From Dehalococcoidia bacterium (GTDB lineage Bacteria > Chloroflexota > Dehalococcoidia > Lucifugimonadales > G963668185), in assembly GCA_965237445.1 (NCBI GenBank), contig OZ250142.1:176153-240152 (forward strand): 64,000 nucleotides of DNA, read 5' to 3'. The position numbers were made by a program, and so were the translations under genes. This document shows, piece after piece, positions 5,512 to 57,922 of this stretch (position 1 is the stretch's first letter; each line of letters opens with the position of its first letter). The notes beneath the pieces are model-generated. The model did no database searches. It saw nothing but the letters and a program-made list of their open reading frames with translations, and was not told where the DNA came from.

Positions 5512-7152
5512 TTGAACGGTGACACTGCGGTCGCGAAGATCTTGAAAGCTGAGGGAATCGAGTGGCTGGCCTGTTTCCCAGCGCAGAGCCTTATTGATGC
5601 CTGCTCACGCGAAGGCATCAGGCCCGTGCTGTGCAGGCAGGAACGGGCGGGGGTGAACATGGCGGACGGCTTCAGCCGGGTCAAGAACGGCAAGACCGTG
5701 GGCGTGTTCACGATGCAACACGGCCCGGGAGCGGAGAACGCTATGTCGGGCGCGGCGCAGGCGTTCGCGGACTCGGTCCCGATCCTGTTGCTGCCGGGAG
5801 GGGAGGCACGAGACCGCCAGGGCGTGCACCCGTATTTCGAGGCGGCGAAGAACTACGAGGGGTTCACCAAGTGGTCCCGTACGACTAGCCTTGCGAGCCG
5901 AATCCCGGCCGTCATGCGCCAGGCGTTCACGCACCTCAAACACGGCAGGCTTGGCCCGGTGCTTGTAGAGATACCGACGGACGTCGCGCTAGAGGAGATA
6001 CCCGGCAACGGGCTAGACTACCAGGCGGTCGCGAGGCGCAGGTCGGGCGGAGACCCGGACGACGTACGAGACATGGTGCGGGCATTGCTGGCGGCGAAGC
6101 GTCCGGTCGTAACGGCGGGCCAGGGCGTGCTGTACGCGGAGGCGAGCGACGAGCTGCTGGAGTTCGCGGAGCTCGCAAACGTGCCGGTGATGACGACGCT
6201 CGCGGGCAAGAGCGCGTTCCCGGAGACGCACCGGCTGGCGCTTGGCACAGGAGGTAATTCGGGAACGAAAATGGTGGCGCACTTCCTTGAGCAGGCTGAC
6301 TTCGTGCTGGGCATAGGAACGAGCTTCACGCAGTCGACCTTCGCCGCTCCCGTTCCGGCACATGCCGCTCTGGCGCAGGTGACGGTCTGCGCCGAGGACC
6401 TGAACAAGGAACGCACGGTGGACTTCGGGGCGGTGGGCGACGCCAAGCTGGTACTGGCACAGATGTGCGAGGAGGTCAGGCGGCAGACGGGCGAGCACGG
6501 TCGCGGCGACGTGCTGGGCGTGGCCGATGAGATAGCAAGGGTGAAGACGGAGTGGATGGCCGAATGGGGATCGAAGTTCACGTCCGATGAGGTCCCGATC
6601 AGCCCGTACCGCGTGATCAAGGAGATGGAAAGCGCGGTCGACGTGCGGGAGACGATCCTGACGCACGACTCTGGCTATCCGCGAGACCAAGTTGTTCCGT
6701 TCTGGCCGGTCGAGACACCAAGAGGCTACATCGGCTGGGGCAAGTCGACACAGCTCGGCTACGGGCTGGGACTGGCGATGGGCGCGAAACTCGCGGCGCC
6801 TGAGAAGCACGTGATTAACCTCATGGGCGACGCGGCTTTCGGAATGTCGGGCCTCGACATCGAGACGGCCGTCCGATCAGAGATCGGCATACTGACTGTG
6901 GTGCTTAACAACGGCGTGATGACCGGCTATTCGGACCACATGCCGCACGCGACCGAGGTGCACGGCAGCAATGCGCTGGGCGGGAACTACGCCGGAGTCG
7001 CCTCCGAGCTGGGTGCGAGCGCGGAGAGGGTCTCGTCACCGGGCGAGATCGCGGGCGCGCTGGGCCGAGGCCTGGCAGCGGCGAGCGAGGGCAGGCCGGC
7101 GCTGGTTGAAGTGATGACCAAAGAGGAGAAGAACGTCCCGAAGTACTGGTAG
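5512..7152 (+). CDS. thiamine-diphosphate-dependent enzyme (acetolactate synthase-like superfamily; substrate unknown)
   Basis: 546 aa with a TTG start preceded by an AAGGAGAAG RBS. The N-terminal Pyr domain, middle domain and C-terminal ThDP motif GDAAFGMSGLDIETAVRSEIGILTVVLNNG are present. Confidence 0.8.
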   Translation: MNGDTAVAKILKAEGIEWLACFPAQSLIDACSREGIRPVLCRQERAGVNMADGFSRVKNGKTVGVFTMQHGPGAENAMSGAAQAFADSVPILLLPGGEARDRQGVHPYFEAAKNYEGFTKWSRTTSLASRIPAVMRQAFTHLKHGRLGPVLVEIPTDVALEEIPGNGLDYQAVARRRSGGDPDDVRDMVRALLAAKRPVVTAGQGVLYAEASDELLEFAELANVPVMTTLAGKSAFPETHRLALGTGGNSGTKMVAHFLEQADFVLGIGTSFTQSTFAAPVPAHAALAQVTVCAEDLNKERTVDFGAVGDAKLVLAQMCEEVRRQTGEHGRGDVLGVADEIARVKTEWMAEWGSKFTSDEVPISPYRVIKEMESAVDVRETILTHDSGYPRDQVVPFWPVETPRGYIGWGKSTQLGYGLGLAMGAKLAAPEKHVINLMGDAAFGMSGLDIETAVRSEIGILTVVLNNGVMTGYSDHMPHATEVHGSNALGGNYAGVASELGASAERVSSPGEIAGALGRGLAAASEGRPALVEVMTKEEKNVPKYW

Positions 7153-7247
7153 GGACGGACAAGGAGAATCCAGCGAACGAGGCAACAACACCCGTTCACA
7201 CCGCCGACAAATGAAAGCGTGGCCGATGCCTGTGATAGCATCAAACT

Positions 7248-7631
7248 ATGACCACAGCAACTGACGCGACACTCGTCTTCGCCGATGCCCGCGCGATGTA
7301 CGATGCGGCGCTGCAGCAATGGGCAGTCGGCGACGTACGCGACGCTGCCGAGAAGGCTTGGTGCGCCGCCAAGCGCGCCACCGACGCGCTCATTCTGGCT
7401 CGCACCGGAGAACTGCCACCGAAGTCGCCCGACACTACGAGGGCATTGCGGGAAATGGCAATGACAGAACCGGCGGTGCGGAGCCTCCGGGGTCGTTACT
7501 TCGAGCGCCAAAGTGTTTTGCACGGTGACTGCTTCTACACGGGCCTATGCGAGCCCATTGATGACGCCGGTCGGCTGGTCCGGGAGACGATTGACTACAT
7601 CCGGGACGCGGAGCAGTTAGCCGGCTTCTAG
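7248..7631 (+). CDS. hypothetical helical protein, PaREP1/HEPN-like
   Basis: 127 aa. AEKAWCAAKRATDALILA and LHGDCFYTG resemble PaREP1-type HEPN-like proteins. The assignment rests on remembered family motifs only. Confidence 0.4.
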   Translation: MTTATDATLVFADARAMYDAALQQWAVGDVRDAAEKAWCAAKRATDALILARTGELPPKSPDTTRALREMAMTEPAVRSLRGRYFERQSVLHGDCFYTGLCEPIDDAGRLVRETIDYIRDAEQLAGF

Positions 7632-7711
7632 CCACTTCAGCCGAAGGTCCCGAATCGAATCGCAGCGTTGAACTCAGGCCCCCGAAAGACCTGTAGGCTT
7701 GTGGCATGACC

Positions 7712-8632
7712 CTACTCCGGTTGGACGCGACCCGGGCGCCAGGACGCGCCATCTCCAGTCAGGAAGCCCGCGATGTCCGATGCGTACTTGACCTCTGAGT
7801 CGTCTTCCGGTTCGTATCCCAGCACCTTGCGGGCGCTGACGAGCGACCAGAAGGCCCGCGTGTTGTTGCTGATGCCGTACACCACGAGCCAGGGCACGCC
7901 ATGTTCGTTGCGTATGTCAGGGGTCTCCATGGACCTGCGGAAGAGTTGCGTAATGTCTCGGGGGCTGATGTAGGCGCCGAGATCGCGCTTGTACAGGGCC
8001 GGATTGCCCACGTAGACGTCGAGGTCCAGGTCACGCGGCGCGCCGATTCGCACGCAGACCACGCCCATCCTGCGGCCGGTGTTGATGCCGCCAACCCTGA
8101 CGACGGCCGCCGGATCACCGGCATCTGAGGCGAACGCACCGCTGGCGAACAGAAAGCCCATGTGCTCGTACGTGGCCTTGGCCCAGCCGTAGAAGTTGTC
8201 GGAAAGTGGCAACTCGTATGGGTCCACGACGTCTTTCTCCCCGCTATGGATGAGCATATGCTCGTACCAGTCGGCGGCGTGGTTTGAGCTTGCAATGACG
8301 ACTCGCTCTACGCCGGCGTCGAAGGCGCAGCGGAGCACGTTGTACGCCATGGCTACGTTCTGACGCTCGAAGAAGTAGTGGTCTATCAGTTCGCCGGAGC
8401 GGGCCCTGTATCCGAGATGTACCACGGCATCAACCCCTTCGAAGTGGTGCGCGTACTTCGAGCGGTCGTCGTCGATCAGGTCCGCGACCTGCACGCCCTC
8501 TACGGGATTGCCATCTCGATCGTTTGTTGAAACGTCGAGCATCACGAGGTCGTATCGCTGCCGGAACGTCGGCAGCATCTGGCTTGCGATGTACCCGGCG
8601 GCGCCGGTTATCAACACTTTCCTTTTCGCCAT
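7712..8632 (-). CDS. NAD-dependent epimerase/dehydratase family protein
   Basis: 306 aa with the N-terminal Rossmann motif KVLITGAAGYIASQM. A YGWAK segment fits the YxxxK catalytic motif. Confidence 0.8.
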   Translation of the reverse strand: MAKRKVLITGAAGYIASQMLPTFRQRYDLVMLDVSTNDRDGNPVEGVQVADLIDDDRSKYAHHFEGVDAVVHLGYRARSGELIDHYFFERQNVAMAYNVLRCAFDAGVERVVIASSNHAADWYEHMLIHSGEKDVVDPYELPLSDNFYGWAKATYEHMGFLFASGAFASDAGDPAAVVRVGGINTGRRMGVVCVRIGAPRDLDLDVYVGNPALYKRDLGAYISPRDITQLFRRSMETPDIRNEHGVPWLVVYGISNNTRAFWSLVSARKVLGYEPEDDSEVKYASDIAGFLTGDGASWRPGRVQPE

Positions 8633-8636
8633 GGGG

Positions 8637-9125
8637 TTACTCCTTTCGCAGGACTGCGGCGTCGGTCTGGGTCGTTGAGATAACGGTCGTTAGTACCTTG
8701 GTCATGCGTACGTGCTGCAGACCGTCCTCCTCGAAGGGCGGCCCGTCGACCTTGTAGCCTCGGCGGGCGTAGAACCGCTCGAGGTACGCCTGTGCATGAA
8801 CGACGACCTCGCGCAGGCCCTGCTCAGTTGCGCTTGCTTCCAGCCACTCTAGGACCTCGCCGCCTATGCCACATCGACGCAGGTCCCGGAGGACGGCCAT
8901 GCGCCCGATCCGCGCCTCGCCGGCAGCGTCCCGGTACAGGCGGCCGGTGCCGACGACCCGGCCGCACGAGTCGAAGGCGGCGGCGTGAACGGCCGACGCA
9001 TCGTACGCGTCGAACTCCACTTCGGCGGGCAGGCCCTGTTCTTCCACGAACACGGCCAGGCGCAGGGACTTCACGACTTGCCAATCGGATTTCCTGAGAA
9101 CTGCTCTTACGTGGATGGGGGTCAT
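8637..9125 (-). CDS. GNAT family N-acetyltransferase
   Basis: 162 aa with an acetyl-CoA binding-type segment IGRMAVLRDLRRCGIGGEVLEWL. It lies 4 nt downstream of the epimerase gene. Confidence 0.8.
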   Translation of the reverse strand: MTPIHVRAVLRKSDWQVVKSLRLAVFVEEQGLPAEVEFDAYDASAVHAAAFDSCGRVVGTGRLYRDAAGEARIGRMAVLRDLRRCGIGGEVLEWLEASATEQGLREVVVHAQAYLERFYARRGYKVDGPPFEEDGLQHVRMTKVLTTVISTTQTDAAVLRKE

Positions 9126-9227
9126 GCCAGAGCGGATTCTATCAGGAGGGCGTGCTTAGAAATGAGCCACAAGCAGTTGTGCTTCACGCTTAGAAGGGCT
9201 TGTTGGCGAGGGTCGGAAGGATGTGTA

Positions 9228-9488
9228 ATGCTCATCAACATCACTTCAAGTGGTACTACGCTTGTGGCCATAATCCAGCTAATCATTCCAGACGAAGACT
9301 GGAACCGGTTCGTCGCCCAGGCGCGCTTGGAAGAGCGACGGAATGTGGGAAGTTTCGACTCTCCGGAGGCTGCCTACCAGATCTTCTTGGAACATGGCAC
9401 CATCGAAGGGCCGGACGCTGAGCCGGACCAGAGCGGCCAACTGCGTGTCATCGACCAGTCGCGAGCAGGTGTCAAGGCCGGACCATGA
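9228..9488 (+). CDS. small hypothetical protein (possible antitoxin-like partner of a PIN remnant)
   Basis: 86 aa from ATG 9228, preceded by a GGAAGGA RBS. The stop overlaps the next ATG (ATGA at 9485-9488). No family recognised. Confidence 0.35.
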   Translation: MLINITSSGTTLVAIIQLIIPDEDWNRFVAQARLEERRNVGSFDSPEAAYQIFLEHGTIEGPDAEPDQSGQLRVIDQSRAGVKAGP

Positions 9489-48431: not shown

Positions 48432-48711
48432 CGCCACCAACCGCCGCACTTTCGACGCCTTAAGAAAAGGACCAGAACACCATCGCCCACTACCCACAAT
48501 CCCGGCAACCCAGCCCGTTCGTAGTGAGCCTGCCGAACCACAATTGGTGGCGACGAAGACACGCCCCGGATACCGTTCACGGAGTCCGAACACCCCCACT
48601 CGCCACTTCCATGCAGCGAACGCGTGTGCTACCATTAGCACATGAACCCAGCCGTCTATGCCACCAACCGCGTGCGAGCCGCAATGAAGAGCGTCCAAGC
48701 TACTCAGATTA

Positions 48712-48856
48712 GTCTCGCTCAAGTGTCACAAATGTGCGCGAACTGGCTCATTTTGTGTACTCCTAGGCTCAAAACTAGTCACCTTTTGTCACTCCAGACA
48801 GCGCCCTCCAGCTTTGGAACGTTACAAAATGTGACGGAATGTGACAGATTTGCGTA
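48712..48856. repeat. iteron-rich palindromic intergenic module A (core TGTCAC / GTGACA)
   Basis: Direct words are GTGTCAC (48723-48729), TTTTGTGTACTCC (48751-48763), GTCAC (48777-48781) and TTTTGTCACTCC (48785-48796). Inverted ATGTGAC at 48829 and 48839 are phased at 10 bp. The module closes with ATTTGCG and is homologous in architecture to 57521-57668. Confidence 0.7.
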
Positions 48857-49029
48857 TCTAACCCACTTCCAGCGCCTCTTCTCACTGGACGAGCGCTCTA
48901 AGTCCCGCAGCGCAGAAGACGAAAGAAACATCGATAGGCCCAGCAACTCCGCAGTGACTGCGCGCCAAACTTTCTTTCGCCTGCTTCACGGTCCGGGCCG
49001 CGTCCTGAGCGCAGCCAAAGGAGCAATGT

Positions 49030-49115
49030 CCAGGTGGCCGGTTTTGGCCGCTTTTGGCCGCCCCAGGAATGTTGGGCACCGCTTGCCAGGTTGGAAATGG
49101 CCGGTTTTGGCCGCT
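49030..49115 (+). repeat. pair of direct repeats CCAGGT...TGGCCGGTTTTGGCCGCT upstream of the Fe-S carrier promoter
   Basis: Perfect 18-mer TGGCCGGTTTTGGCCGCT copies lie at 49035-49052 and 49098-49115. Each is preceded by CCAGGT (49030 and 49086), and there is an extra TTTTGGCCGC at 49052-49061. Confidence 0.8.
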
Positions 49116-49154
49116 AGGGCCGGCAGTCCGCTGACCGACTGGTACCGGTTTCGA

Positions 49155-49184
49155 TTGACTACGCAACGCGATAATGCCTAGAAT
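49155..49184 (+). promoter_or_regulatory. sigma70-like promoter TTGACT-N18-TAGAAT
   Basis: TTGACT at 49155-49160 and TAGAAT at 49179-49184 lie about 60 nt upstream of ATG 49244, which has an AGGAGA RBS. Confidence 0.55.
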
Positions 49185-56838: not shown

Positions 56839-57201
56839 CTAGTCTGAGACCCGGCCGCCTCTCTGACTCGCGGCCTCTTCCAACAGCCTGTCGAGAAGTA
56901 CGAACGACTCCTGGACCTTGAAGTCCAGGCTGGCGATGGACATAGCCCGAAACAGTACACCGGTTGAGACCCGCGCCCTCACACCCTCTCCCAGGGCCGG
57001 CACCTTCTGCCCGAGCGCCTTCGAAACGAATCCCGCCGCTGTCATGCCCTCCCGCGTGAGTGGAAAGTGCATCAGCATCTTGTCGTCATATGAGAGCACC
57101 AGCCCGGTCTCATCCTGCCGGAGGTCGAGGTTGAGATGTGCCCGGGGCACGGCGATCAGTTCTTCGGCATACTCTGTGATCTCAACGGATTGATCGTTCA
57201 T
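56839..57201 (-). CDS. hypothetical protein
   Basis: 120 aa from ATG 57201 (MNDQSVEITEYAEELIAV...). No family recognised and coding status is moderate. Confidence 0.4.
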   Translation of the reverse strand: MNDQSVEITEYAEELIAVPRAHLNLDLRQDETGLVLSYDDKMLMHFPLTREGMTAAGFVSKALGQKVPALGEGVRARVSTGVLFRAMSIASLDFKVQESFVLLDRLLEEAASQRGGRVSD

Positions 57202-57520
57202 GGCGCTCACGCCCCTATCGTATCGCTGATGCCAGCCCAGAGAAAGCAGTCCGCACGGTATCGCCGCCAACGATGAGGGGCTTGCCTTCTACAAACATCT
57301 GTGCTATTATCAGTTCATGGATGTCGTGAAACTCGCCTGCCGCACCCGCAACGGAGTCCAGAGGGCTCCAGAAGGCTATTGCAGGAGCGCTCGAAATACC
57401 GCACCAAAACGTGGACTCTCTCTGCCGGCTGCTGAGACGCTTCCCAGATGCCTGTAGGCCCGATCAGCCTTTGGGCTCCCCTTTTGGGTCCCCTTTTGAG
57501 TGCAACGAAGGGGCCTCACG

Positions 57521-57668
57521 CTGCAAACGTGTTCCATTCGTGTTCCATTCATGCCCTGAATGTGCCCCGGTTAAGTACCAATCGTGTTCCAAAGCAGTCC
57601 CGCAAACCCCCCCAACCCAGCTACGAAATGGAACAAAACGGAACATAATGGAACACATTTTTGCGAAA
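57521..57668. repeat. iteron-rich palindromic intergenic module B (core TGTTCC / GGAACA)
   Basis: GTGTTCCATTC occurs twice in perfect tandem (57529-57539 and 57540-57550), and GTGTTCC again at 57584-57590. Inverted A(T/C)GGAACA at 57628, 57638 and 57648 are phased at 10 bp. The flanks are GCAAAC (57523-57528) and TTTTTGCG (57657-57664). The outer arms, GTGTTCCATT and AATGGAACAC, are perfectly complementary. Confidence 0.8.
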
Positions 57669-57922
57669 ACTAGCCTCCGTTGCGCACCCGCTTCCTGTTG
57701 AAGCTTTGCCGAAGCCTTCCACACTGCATTCGCAAGACCCAACTGCACACACGGCCAACTCTTTCCAAAGCCGCCCACCGTCGTTATGGGCCATCACAGA
57801 ATTGCCCGAAAAGTGTGGGACCTGCTCGGGCCCACATCACGTCTTGGGGCTGACGCAATTTAGGTCTCCCGCAATGCCGCCGCCAACTTGCGGTAACAGG
57901 TTAGGTCTGTCACGATTGTTGC

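Follow-up and report, generated by a model that had tools for sequence, protein, structure and literature searches.

A promoter-linked cassette of phased repeat units in a Dehalococcoidia-like lineage: a candidate array of protein-binding sites

Two repeat modules in one genome

The DNA described here is a 64-kb stretch from a Dehalococcoidia bacterium, referred to below as the window. It contains two intergenic arrays of short repeated words, modules A and B, whose neighbors are a DUF192 gene, a gene for an Fe-S carrier, a PAC2 gene and a hypothetical gene. Each array is situated a short way upstream of a host gene's own promoter and points in the same direction. Flanking proteins assign the window to Dehalococcoidia-like Chloroflexota, a group represented by metagenome assemblies only. 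No binding protein is encoded beside module A or module B, as had been stated in an earlier note on this DNA. The window was compared with 20-kb loci of Chloroflexota relatives from metagenome assemblies, designated by L numbers, for a total of 1.85 Mb. Features lie on the forward strand except where indicated.

Module A (48712-48856) consists of two arms of short units around a C-rich center. The left arm (48712..48795) has the units GTGTCAC (48723-48729), TGTGTAC (48755-48760), AGTCAC (48777-48782) and TGTCAC (48787-48792), with spacings of 30, 23 and 10 bp. The C-rich center (48796..48820) holds a CCAGCT box at 48808-48813. In the right arm (48821..48854) GTTACA, GTGACG and GTGACA begin at 48821, 48831 and 48841, a 10+10 bp spacing, and are followed by GATTTGCG. 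The words listed in the earlier note were for the most part read accurately: GTGTCAC at 48723-48729 and TTTTGTGTACTCC at 48751-48763 are as given, ATGTGAC recurs at 48829 and 48839 in exact 10-bp phase, and GATTTGCG, at 48847-48854, ends the module. GTCAC and TTTTGTCACTCC are also present, each one position away from the start assigned to it, at 48778 instead of 48777 and at 48784 instead of 48785. The gap is locally richer in AT, as had been noticed; its GC content is 0.45-0.46 at 48700-48800 and about 45% over 48700-48850, compared to 0.617 (61.7%) in the whole window.

Module B (57520..57666) has left units TGTTCC at 57530, 57541 and 57585, CCAGCT at 57617-57622, and right units GGAACA at 57630, 57640 and 57650, followed by TTTTTGCG. 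Palindromy is strong in module B (z = 6.6) and weak in module A (z = 0.8).

Upstream of each module, as of every other copy of the family, is a conserved promoter-like motif, P1, which had escaped the earlier note. P1(A), at 48601..48641, has TTCCAT (48607-48612), a 17-nt spacer containing GCGAAC and TGTGC, then TACCAT, 6 nt, and an ATG at 48642. P1(B), at 57277..57317, has TTGCCT, 17 nt, TATTAT with a TG extension, 6 nt, and an ATG at 57318. The family motif is cTTGCaT-gcGCGAACgccTGTGCTATTAT, with the ATG exactly 6 nt past the -10 hexamer. Within the window the pattern GCGAACNNNTGTGCTATTAT matches at 48616 and 57291 only, with 0.05 matches expected by chance. P1 is kept in all sister-species copies, and in the close-lineage loci compared it was found beside modules only. 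The module lies 70-210 nt downstream of P1, with the exception of L096, where other repeats are inserted between the two and the distance is about 480 nt. The leader of A (48642..48711) is variable and non-coding, and its initial ATG is placed as in a leaderless transcript. The P1-to-module leaders of the variants do not align, and neither their sequence nor their length is conserved. A second, degenerate P1-like motif (nhmmer E = 2e-5) occurs at 955-1180 of L095, some 500 bp ahead of the L095 module. A C-rich stretch with an ATCAC/GTAAC-like pattern of about 10-bp periodicity comes after it, and this may be a decayed tandem copy.

A mechanical ORF of 179 aa (48642-49181, +) spans the gap at module A and is annotated as a gene in several assemblies. 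Strains differ in it by 5 non-synonymous and 2 synonymous changes. Its GC3 is 0.62 compared to 0.74-0.84 in neighboring genes, a 1-nt indel between L092 and L093 disrupts its frame, and it has no Pfam match. The length of the ORF that begins at the P1 ATG is 179 aa in A and 46 aa in B, and in L091 the stop codon falls inside the right arm. Substitutions, GC3, the broken frame and the unconserved length show that neither the 179-aa ORF nor the leaderless-ATG ORFs generally are coding. The gap has no credible ORF, as the earlier note held, and the 179-aa "gene" over module A should be deleted from the assemblies.

Module B is part of a 606-bp insertion

Module B is carried by an insertion of 606 bp (57272..57877), which comprises P1(B), a leader, the module and a 210-bp tail. 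The 10-bp direct repeat CGCCGCCAAC flanks this element, with its left copy at 57262..57271 and its right copy at 57878..57887, directly before a TTGCGG hexamer in the PAC2 promoter region. The insertion and its direct repeat were not recognized in the earlier note. Relatives L091-L095 and L098-L103 carry 40-77 bp where the window has the B element. The insertion replaces nothing; the 77-bp spacer of relatives matches the 73 bp to the left of the insertion in the window. Module B is absent from all relatives examined. The cassette is mobile now or has been so in the past, having moved at least once, at B, which is a recent insertion.

Bacterial MITEs and the long palindromic repeats ERIC and Correia/NEMIS resemble the modules as imperfect intergenic palindromes of about 130-150 bp that are AT-richer than their surroundings, with one copy here lying within a repeat-flanked insertion. 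They differ in that the repeat flanks a 606-bp unit with a central palindrome and no terminal inverted repeats (TIRs), and in that a promoter is linked to each copy. The best end-to-end alignment of the B element scores below the shuffle mean. A classical MITE is rejected on the lack of TIRs in B's 606-bp unit and on the internal position of its palindrome. The earlier note had suggested a search for target-site duplications. None abuts module A or B, where the flanks continue the inverted symmetry; a direct repeat is found only around the larger 606-bp unit.

Several smaller features were noticed in and around the two gaps. The sequence CGCC(A/G)CCAAC occurs four times in the window (0.6 expected), at 48432-48441, 48659-48671, 57262-57271 and 57878-57887, three of them at gap borders. 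In gap A an exact 12-bp direct repeat, GCCACCAACCGC, at 48433 and 48660, brackets P1 and not the module. This repeat and CGCC(A/G)CCAAC may mark a target or att-like site. The B leader has a T-tract repeat, CTTTGGGCTCCCCTTTTGGGTCCCCTTTTGAG, at 57470-57500, which scores as terminator-like and is similar to the TGGCCGGTTTTGGCCGC(T/C) copies of gap A described below. The hypothetical gene beside B (56839-57201, minus strand) most likely starts at ATG 57201, which is conserved in relatives and gives 120 aa, and not at TTG 57270.

Distribution and conservation in relatives

In strains with an identical Fe-S carrier protein, module A is retained at a level of 99% or higher. All of the sister lineages, in which PAC2 is 88-94% and the Fe-S protein 84-89% identical, carry a module upstream of the Fe-S carrier gene. 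The conservation of this copy, in at least five sister lineages, was also missed by the earlier note. The cores are TGTCAC/GTTAC in L092, L093, L094 and L099-L101. In L091 the core is TGTTGC/GCAACA, with 8 units, and in L095 there is a degenerate GTGAC/GATGA set. L098 has mixed cores: TGTCAC, GTCTC and GTCGC on the left, and GTGGC, GTTAC and GCGAC on the right. No module was found at the Fe-S locus of the more distant L102, L104 and L103; in L102 and L104 the Fe-S promoter comes immediately after the DUF192 gene.

A metagenome scan with a degenerate right-arm pattern of 47 bits revealed one further locus only (L096/L097), with the core GAGACA, upstream of an unrelated gene. The left arm has been lost in L096. 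There are two copies in the 64 kb, one per 20-kb relative locus, and none other in the 1.85 Mb compared, in which clusters of the unit motif occur at modules only. Collections of viral contigs, phages and plasmids gave no matches, and no description of such an element was found in a literature search. A contig search with the YgfZ-like protein yielded only relatives of 43% identity or less, too distant for non-coding comparison; it supplied the locus L012, discussed below.

The right arm aligns without gaps in 8 of 8 variants, including one from a marine lineage, with AA.G..AC every 10 columns. The 10+10 bp spacing is found in all eight, so that the repeat phasing, on which the earlier note had staked its interpretation, is kept in related genomes. 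CAGCT is invariant in the same number of aligned family variants (8/8). Identity of the window to the L093 group is 85-90% for P1 and the right arm, with about 86-90% for the right arm of module A by itself, and about 78% for coding DNA; most of the intergenic DNA is beyond alignment. Since P1 and the right arm are more conserved than nearby coding DNA, selection on the sequence itself can be argued.

These data bear on the possibility that the cassette is a functionless, decaying remnant, such as the control region of a degraded prophage, a terminase cassette or another mobile element. Such a remnant would be kept by recent common descent, and its units would be homogenized by slippage or hairpin-templated repair. 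The gaps are indeed hot spots of insertion, with IS elements in L002 and L003 and a strain-variable 1.8-kb segment beside P1; the units of L095 and L098 are degenerate, L096 is without its left arm, and many copies of the multi-copy Zn-ribbon cassettes considered below are truncated. It is hard to see, however, why a remnant should retain a right arm and P1 more conserved than coding DNA amid unalignable intergenic DNA, or the gap-free right-arm register in eight variants. The B element, moreover, shows 2-3 strain differences in 606 bp, compared to 10 in the adjacent region of about 260 bp, which lies in the hypothetical gene. We consider a remnant of this kind improbable.

Relationship of the two modules and the core swap

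The right arms of A and B align without gaps, with 30 of 44 positions identical. In the 28-nt stretch singled out in the earlier note there are 9 mismatches, 4 of which are accounted for by a TG to GA swap in two units, and the swap is mirrored on the left arms, TGTCAC in A versus TGTTCC in B, just as described there. The permutation test of this alignment gave an answer that depends on scoring. With +1/-1 scoring the A/B score was 16, compared to 8.5 ± 1.3 for dinucleotide shuffles, and this score was reached by 2 of 3000 shuffles but in none of the 1253 other stretches compared; with +2/-3 scoring, however, the pairwise alignment was not significant (z = 1.1). A profile constructed from A and the Fe-S-locus copies of other genomes, leaving out B, was then used with nhmmer. 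It found B with E = 1.2e-7, the sole other significant match in the 64 kb. Since a profile built without B finds B, the two modules are homologous, and the claim that they are paralogues of one family is borne out. The bridge between A and B is provided by the variants in sister species.

Comparison of the variants gives AATG-NN-ACA as the constant part of the unit, whose general form is (T/C)GTNNC in the left arm and GNNAC(A/G) in the right arm. The concerted swap between A and B does not extend to the family as a rule, since L098 mixes TG, AG, CG and TT cores and L095 is degenerate; the mixed cores weaken the case for a strict code of specificity. The earlier note took the swap to be the signature of two paralogous proteins. 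The constant AATG-NN-ACA and the existence of modules with mixed cores indicate that two such proteins are not required. It is possible that one binder tolerant at NN, together with local homogenization of units, would equally explain the pattern.

DNA sites or RNA stems

The left-arm spacings differ among variants (30/23/10, 22/43/10, 21/22/20, 11/22/11/11 and 11/44 bp) and yet remain in helical phase. With unit positions chosen by our own motif definitions, the mean cosine was 0.86 at a period of 10.75 bp, a value reached by 0 of 20,000 random sets. Placement on the same face suits proteins on B-DNA and is useless to an RNA helix; the phasing therefore favors protein binding, which we infer for the family as a whole.

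A different use of the same sequence would be as a small RNA gene. P1 would give a transcript of about 215 nt in A or 350 nt in B, ending at the U-rich run past the last unit, with a 3' interrupted hairpin formed by pairing of left with right units and a CCAGCU loop. Through this C-rich loop the RNA would base-pair with the Shine-Dalgarno regions of its target mRNAs. The conserved promoter aims into the module in every copy, the last unit is followed by a T-rich tail in most variants, and one unit pair shows GC/AU/CG covariation. The plus strand of A (z = -2.3 to -2.5) and B (z = -3.0 to -3.4, good on both strands) also fold better than shuffled sequences. Fold stability is not consistent, however. 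The z-scores are -0.3 in L098, 0.05 for the plus strand of L091, -1.2 in L093 and -1.3 in L095, with an overall range of -3.4 to +0.2, and the favored strand flips among variants, L091 folding better on the minus strand. The consensus energy from RNAalifold is only -2.95 kcal/mol. With nested pairing, each helix of L098 contains a mismatch. Among A-type orthologues, changes in the second right unit, r2 (GTGAC, GTTAC, GCTAC), and in its presumed partner l3 are uncompensated. Rfam gave no match at the gathering threshold in the window, the hits in the two gaps were no better than chance (E > 1), and neither tRNA nor tmRNA was found in the window. The 10.5-11-bp phasing of left units would have no reason in RNA. 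A conserved RNA hairpin is unsupported in view of the variable z-scores, the strand flips and the weak consensus, and a small RNA gene in the wider sense is rather unlikely. The position taken in the earlier note, that these are arrays of DNA sites and not independent RNA stems, is supported by the helical phasing and by the lack of a consistent fold stability or strand.

The explanation best supported is that the cassette, restricted to one Dehalococcoidia-like lineage, is an orphan array of protein-binding sites that was once mobile, with a predicted binder encoded elsewhere. We hold it tentatively, at slightly less than an even chance. The cassette is composed of P1, a variable untranslated leader, and a unit array of about 145 bp in which 2-5 inverted left units and three right units (10+10 bp), all placed at multiples of one helical turn, flank the C-rich CAGCT center. 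In the likeliest mechanism, a small sequence-specific DNA-binding protein would occupy the same face of the DNA in both arms, in several copies, bending or looping the center into a nucleoprotein assembly site. The gene for this protein may lie at another place in the genome or on a mobile element, and the variable dinucleotide would set its specificity or drift with it. Because a protein-binding array is best supported, the idea put forward in the earlier note, of arrays read by sequence-specific proteins, seems broadly right.

Comparison with known site arrays

The particular systems proposed in the earlier note, namely iteron/initiator, ParB partition and transposase ends, each fail a defining feature. 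Iteron-type origins have direct repeats of about 17-22 bp beside a rep gene, together with a DnaA box and an AT-rich unwinding region; the present units are 10-11 bp, and there is no rep gene among the neighbors. A parC/ParR or ParB-parS centromere lies beside a partition operon or across its promoter; here there are no par genes within 10 kb and no parS-like 16-bp palindromes. Examined by eye, the spacing or orientation was also unfit for a sigma-54 promoter, a CRP site, DnaA boxes, parS, an integron attC site or res sites.

There are partial likenesses nonetheless. In centromere arrays a change in all units redefines the bound protein, and box B of P1/P7 parS is the model of a concerted specificity swap. 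The arrays of parC/ParR and the heptads of omega proteins resemble the modules in having units of 7-11 bp, direct and inverted, together with a promoter. The cassette differs from parC/ParR centromeres in that it has no adjacent partition genes, is chromosomal and intergenic, and has its promoter upstream of the array and not inside it. The attP sites of lambda-like phages have arm-type integrase sites spaced on arms around a core. The modules are similar in that one arm has at least two spaced sites and the other has three inverted sites that are contiguous and in 10-bp phase; they are dissimilar in that no integrase is encoded nearby and the B array lies in the middle of its element and not at the junctions.

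Response-regulator sites are also alike in form. The sites of OmpR are tandem-repeat arrays of the same type, and tandem direct repeats at the 10-11-bp period of OmpR/PhoB arrays are present in the modules. No response-regulator gene is adjacent to them. PhoP of M. tuberculosis is described as binding 7-bp direct repeats with a 4-bp spacer in one account of these sites (PMC4832192). Head-to-tail repeats, the 10-11-bp period, the short core and the A/T-rich spacer are shared with OmpR/PhoB sites (PMC4832192). The modules are unlike such sites in their odd unit numbers, the inverted second array 40-60 bp away, the mobile context and the different cores at two loci of one genome.

With these resemblances in mind, the modules could be considered host cis-regulatory regions, upstream sites of activation or repression by a transcription factor of the chromosome. 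This factor, an OmpR/PhoB-type winged helix or similar, would bind tandem direct repeats of 10-11 bp in head-to-tail order and would control the downstream promoter (of the Fe-S carrier/YgfZ operon or of PAC2), P1, or both. Every copy precedes, in matching orientation, a gene equipped with a conserved promoter of its own, which at the Fe-S locus is TTGACT-18-TAGAAT at 49155-49184, and GNNAC with an A/T spacer at 10-11 bp resembles known response-regulator sites. The downstream genes, however, are functionally unrelated and their promoters are about 55-310 bp away; the same genes lack the element in close relatives (the Fe-S gene in L102, L104 and L103, PAC2 in all). Moreover, B came as an insertion with its own promoter, and the cores differ between two loci of one genome. 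Regulation of host genes is accordingly quite unlikely as the role of the cassette.

Zn-ribbon and terminase cassettes in distant Dehalococcoidia

Analogous arrays occur in more distant Dehalococcoidia. On the chromosome of one of these, L012 (15119-14448, minus strand), a P1-like promoter and a leader of about 190 nt precede an array of five GTCAC units spaced 10-11 bp; a ribosome-binding site comes next, and then a gene for a small Zn-ribbon protein. L108 (3650-4489) has a near-identical Zn-ribbon protein and GTCAC units. In L107 (3585-5666), where the protein is 55% identical, there are nine GTAAC units at alternating 10/11 bp and one inverted GTTAC. The L107 and L012 leaders are 90% identical; the core of the array has thus changed with the protein variant as the rest of the control region remained constant. 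The Zn-ribbon protein has 153-164 aa and a CxxC...CxxxC motif, and its homologues are multi-copy and often truncated. Nothing significant was found for it in Pfam, PHROGs, NCBIfam or PDB sequences, and its AlphaFold model is too poor to be searched by fold. In L107 the Zn-ribbon gene and the start of a gene for a large terminase (Terminase_6N and Terminase_6C, with one frameshift) overlap, which places the Zn-ribbon gene in the position of a small-terminase gene. No other phage genes are nearby.

The window-type P1 profile finds the L012 promoter by nhmmer with E = 0.0013, and the next-best matches are L107 and L108; part of this similarity across cassettes reflects the generic promoter consensus. 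Beyond P1 and the unit type, the modules, leaders and tails of the window have no detectable sequence similarity to the L012-type arrays and leaders. No Zn-ribbon or terminase homologue was found in the window or in any close-relative locus compared. Common descent of the window cassettes and the Zn-ribbon cassettes would have modest support from these comparisons.

The DNA sites of terminases are of interest in this connection. The pacL/pacC/pacR sites of SPP1 and the R sites of lambda cosB are arrays of short, helically phased sites in bent DNA that flank a central segment. A single small DNA-binding protein, present in many copies, reads these sites, and specificity differs between phage lineages. 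The modules are like them in having two phased arms around a center, and the L107 array stands upstream of a Zn-ribbon gene and then terL. They are unlike them in that no terminase genes are near A or B, and the Zn-ribbon protein has no detectable resemblance to known small terminases. The position expected of a terminase pac/cos site, in or beside the terminase genes of a phage, GTA or satellite, is not seen in the window or its close relatives; only the analogous array of L107 has it. By analogy with the distant cassettes, the binder of the candidate protein-binding array may be like a terminase small subunit or a DNA-binding protein of a late operon. Modules A and B may be recognition sites of the pac/cosB or operator type that have been left as orphans. 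A more specific proposal, that the cassettes are orphan packaging or assembly signals coded by specificity, with terS-like Zn-ribbon proteins reading the two variable bases, seems to us very improbable. If it were true, A (TG) and B (GA) would mark host loci for different terminase-bearing elements and could start the packaging of adjacent host genes into phage-like or gene-transfer particles, and a concerted change of all units could rewrite the code.

The significance of the cassette depends on which of these readings is correct. If it is bound by a dedicated protein, it would represent an undescribed family of cis-elements in an uncultured and environmentally common class. It would also be a compact natural system for the co-change of DNA-binding specificity and sites, with a simple unit, AATG-NN-ACA, that occupies one helical turn and varies between copies in its two central bases. 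A real link to the cassettes of Zn-ribbon and large-terminase genes would suggest that packaging signals exist in the chromosome, and with them a route by which genes are transferred in Chloroflexota. If the cassette is only a decaying mobile remnant, its value would be limited to genome annotation.

Other features of the gaps

The same gaps have received other DNA. In L002 an IS5-type element is inserted exactly at window position 48710-48712, with duplication of TTA, at the left edge of module A; the IS regions of L002 are 7029-8515 and 8638-9466. An IS with a UPF0236 transposase and 23-bp TIRs (L003 18034-19516) lies at window position 57265-57276, beside the left end of B. The modules have no relation to the IS elements found in these gaps; the UPF0236 IS has TIRs of its own and does not occur in the window. 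In L001, L003, L004, L008 and L009 an extra 1.8 kb lies directly left of P1(A) (7528-9347 in L001; window 48444 to 48590). This strain-variable segment has two genes for membrane proteins of 218 and 175 aa, which were dismissed as binders since they have no DNA-binding features. The first of the two genes is preceded by TATTAT, 6 nt and ATG, the leaderless layout of P1.

REP-like palindromes of the form CCGTTCG(C/T)..TGAGCCTGTCGAA(C/G)G are present in the variable intergenic DNA around cassettes, at 48509-48545 in the window, 750-1500 in L091 (many tandem copies), 600-900 in L095 and 3250-3560 in L107. Between module A and the Fe-S promoter, at 49035-49115 of the window, there are three copies of TGGCCGGTTTTGGCCGC(T/C), two of which abut at 10-bp phase, with the third 53 bp on. 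The motif is conserved in L092-L094, together with a neighboring CCAGGTTGGAAA box.
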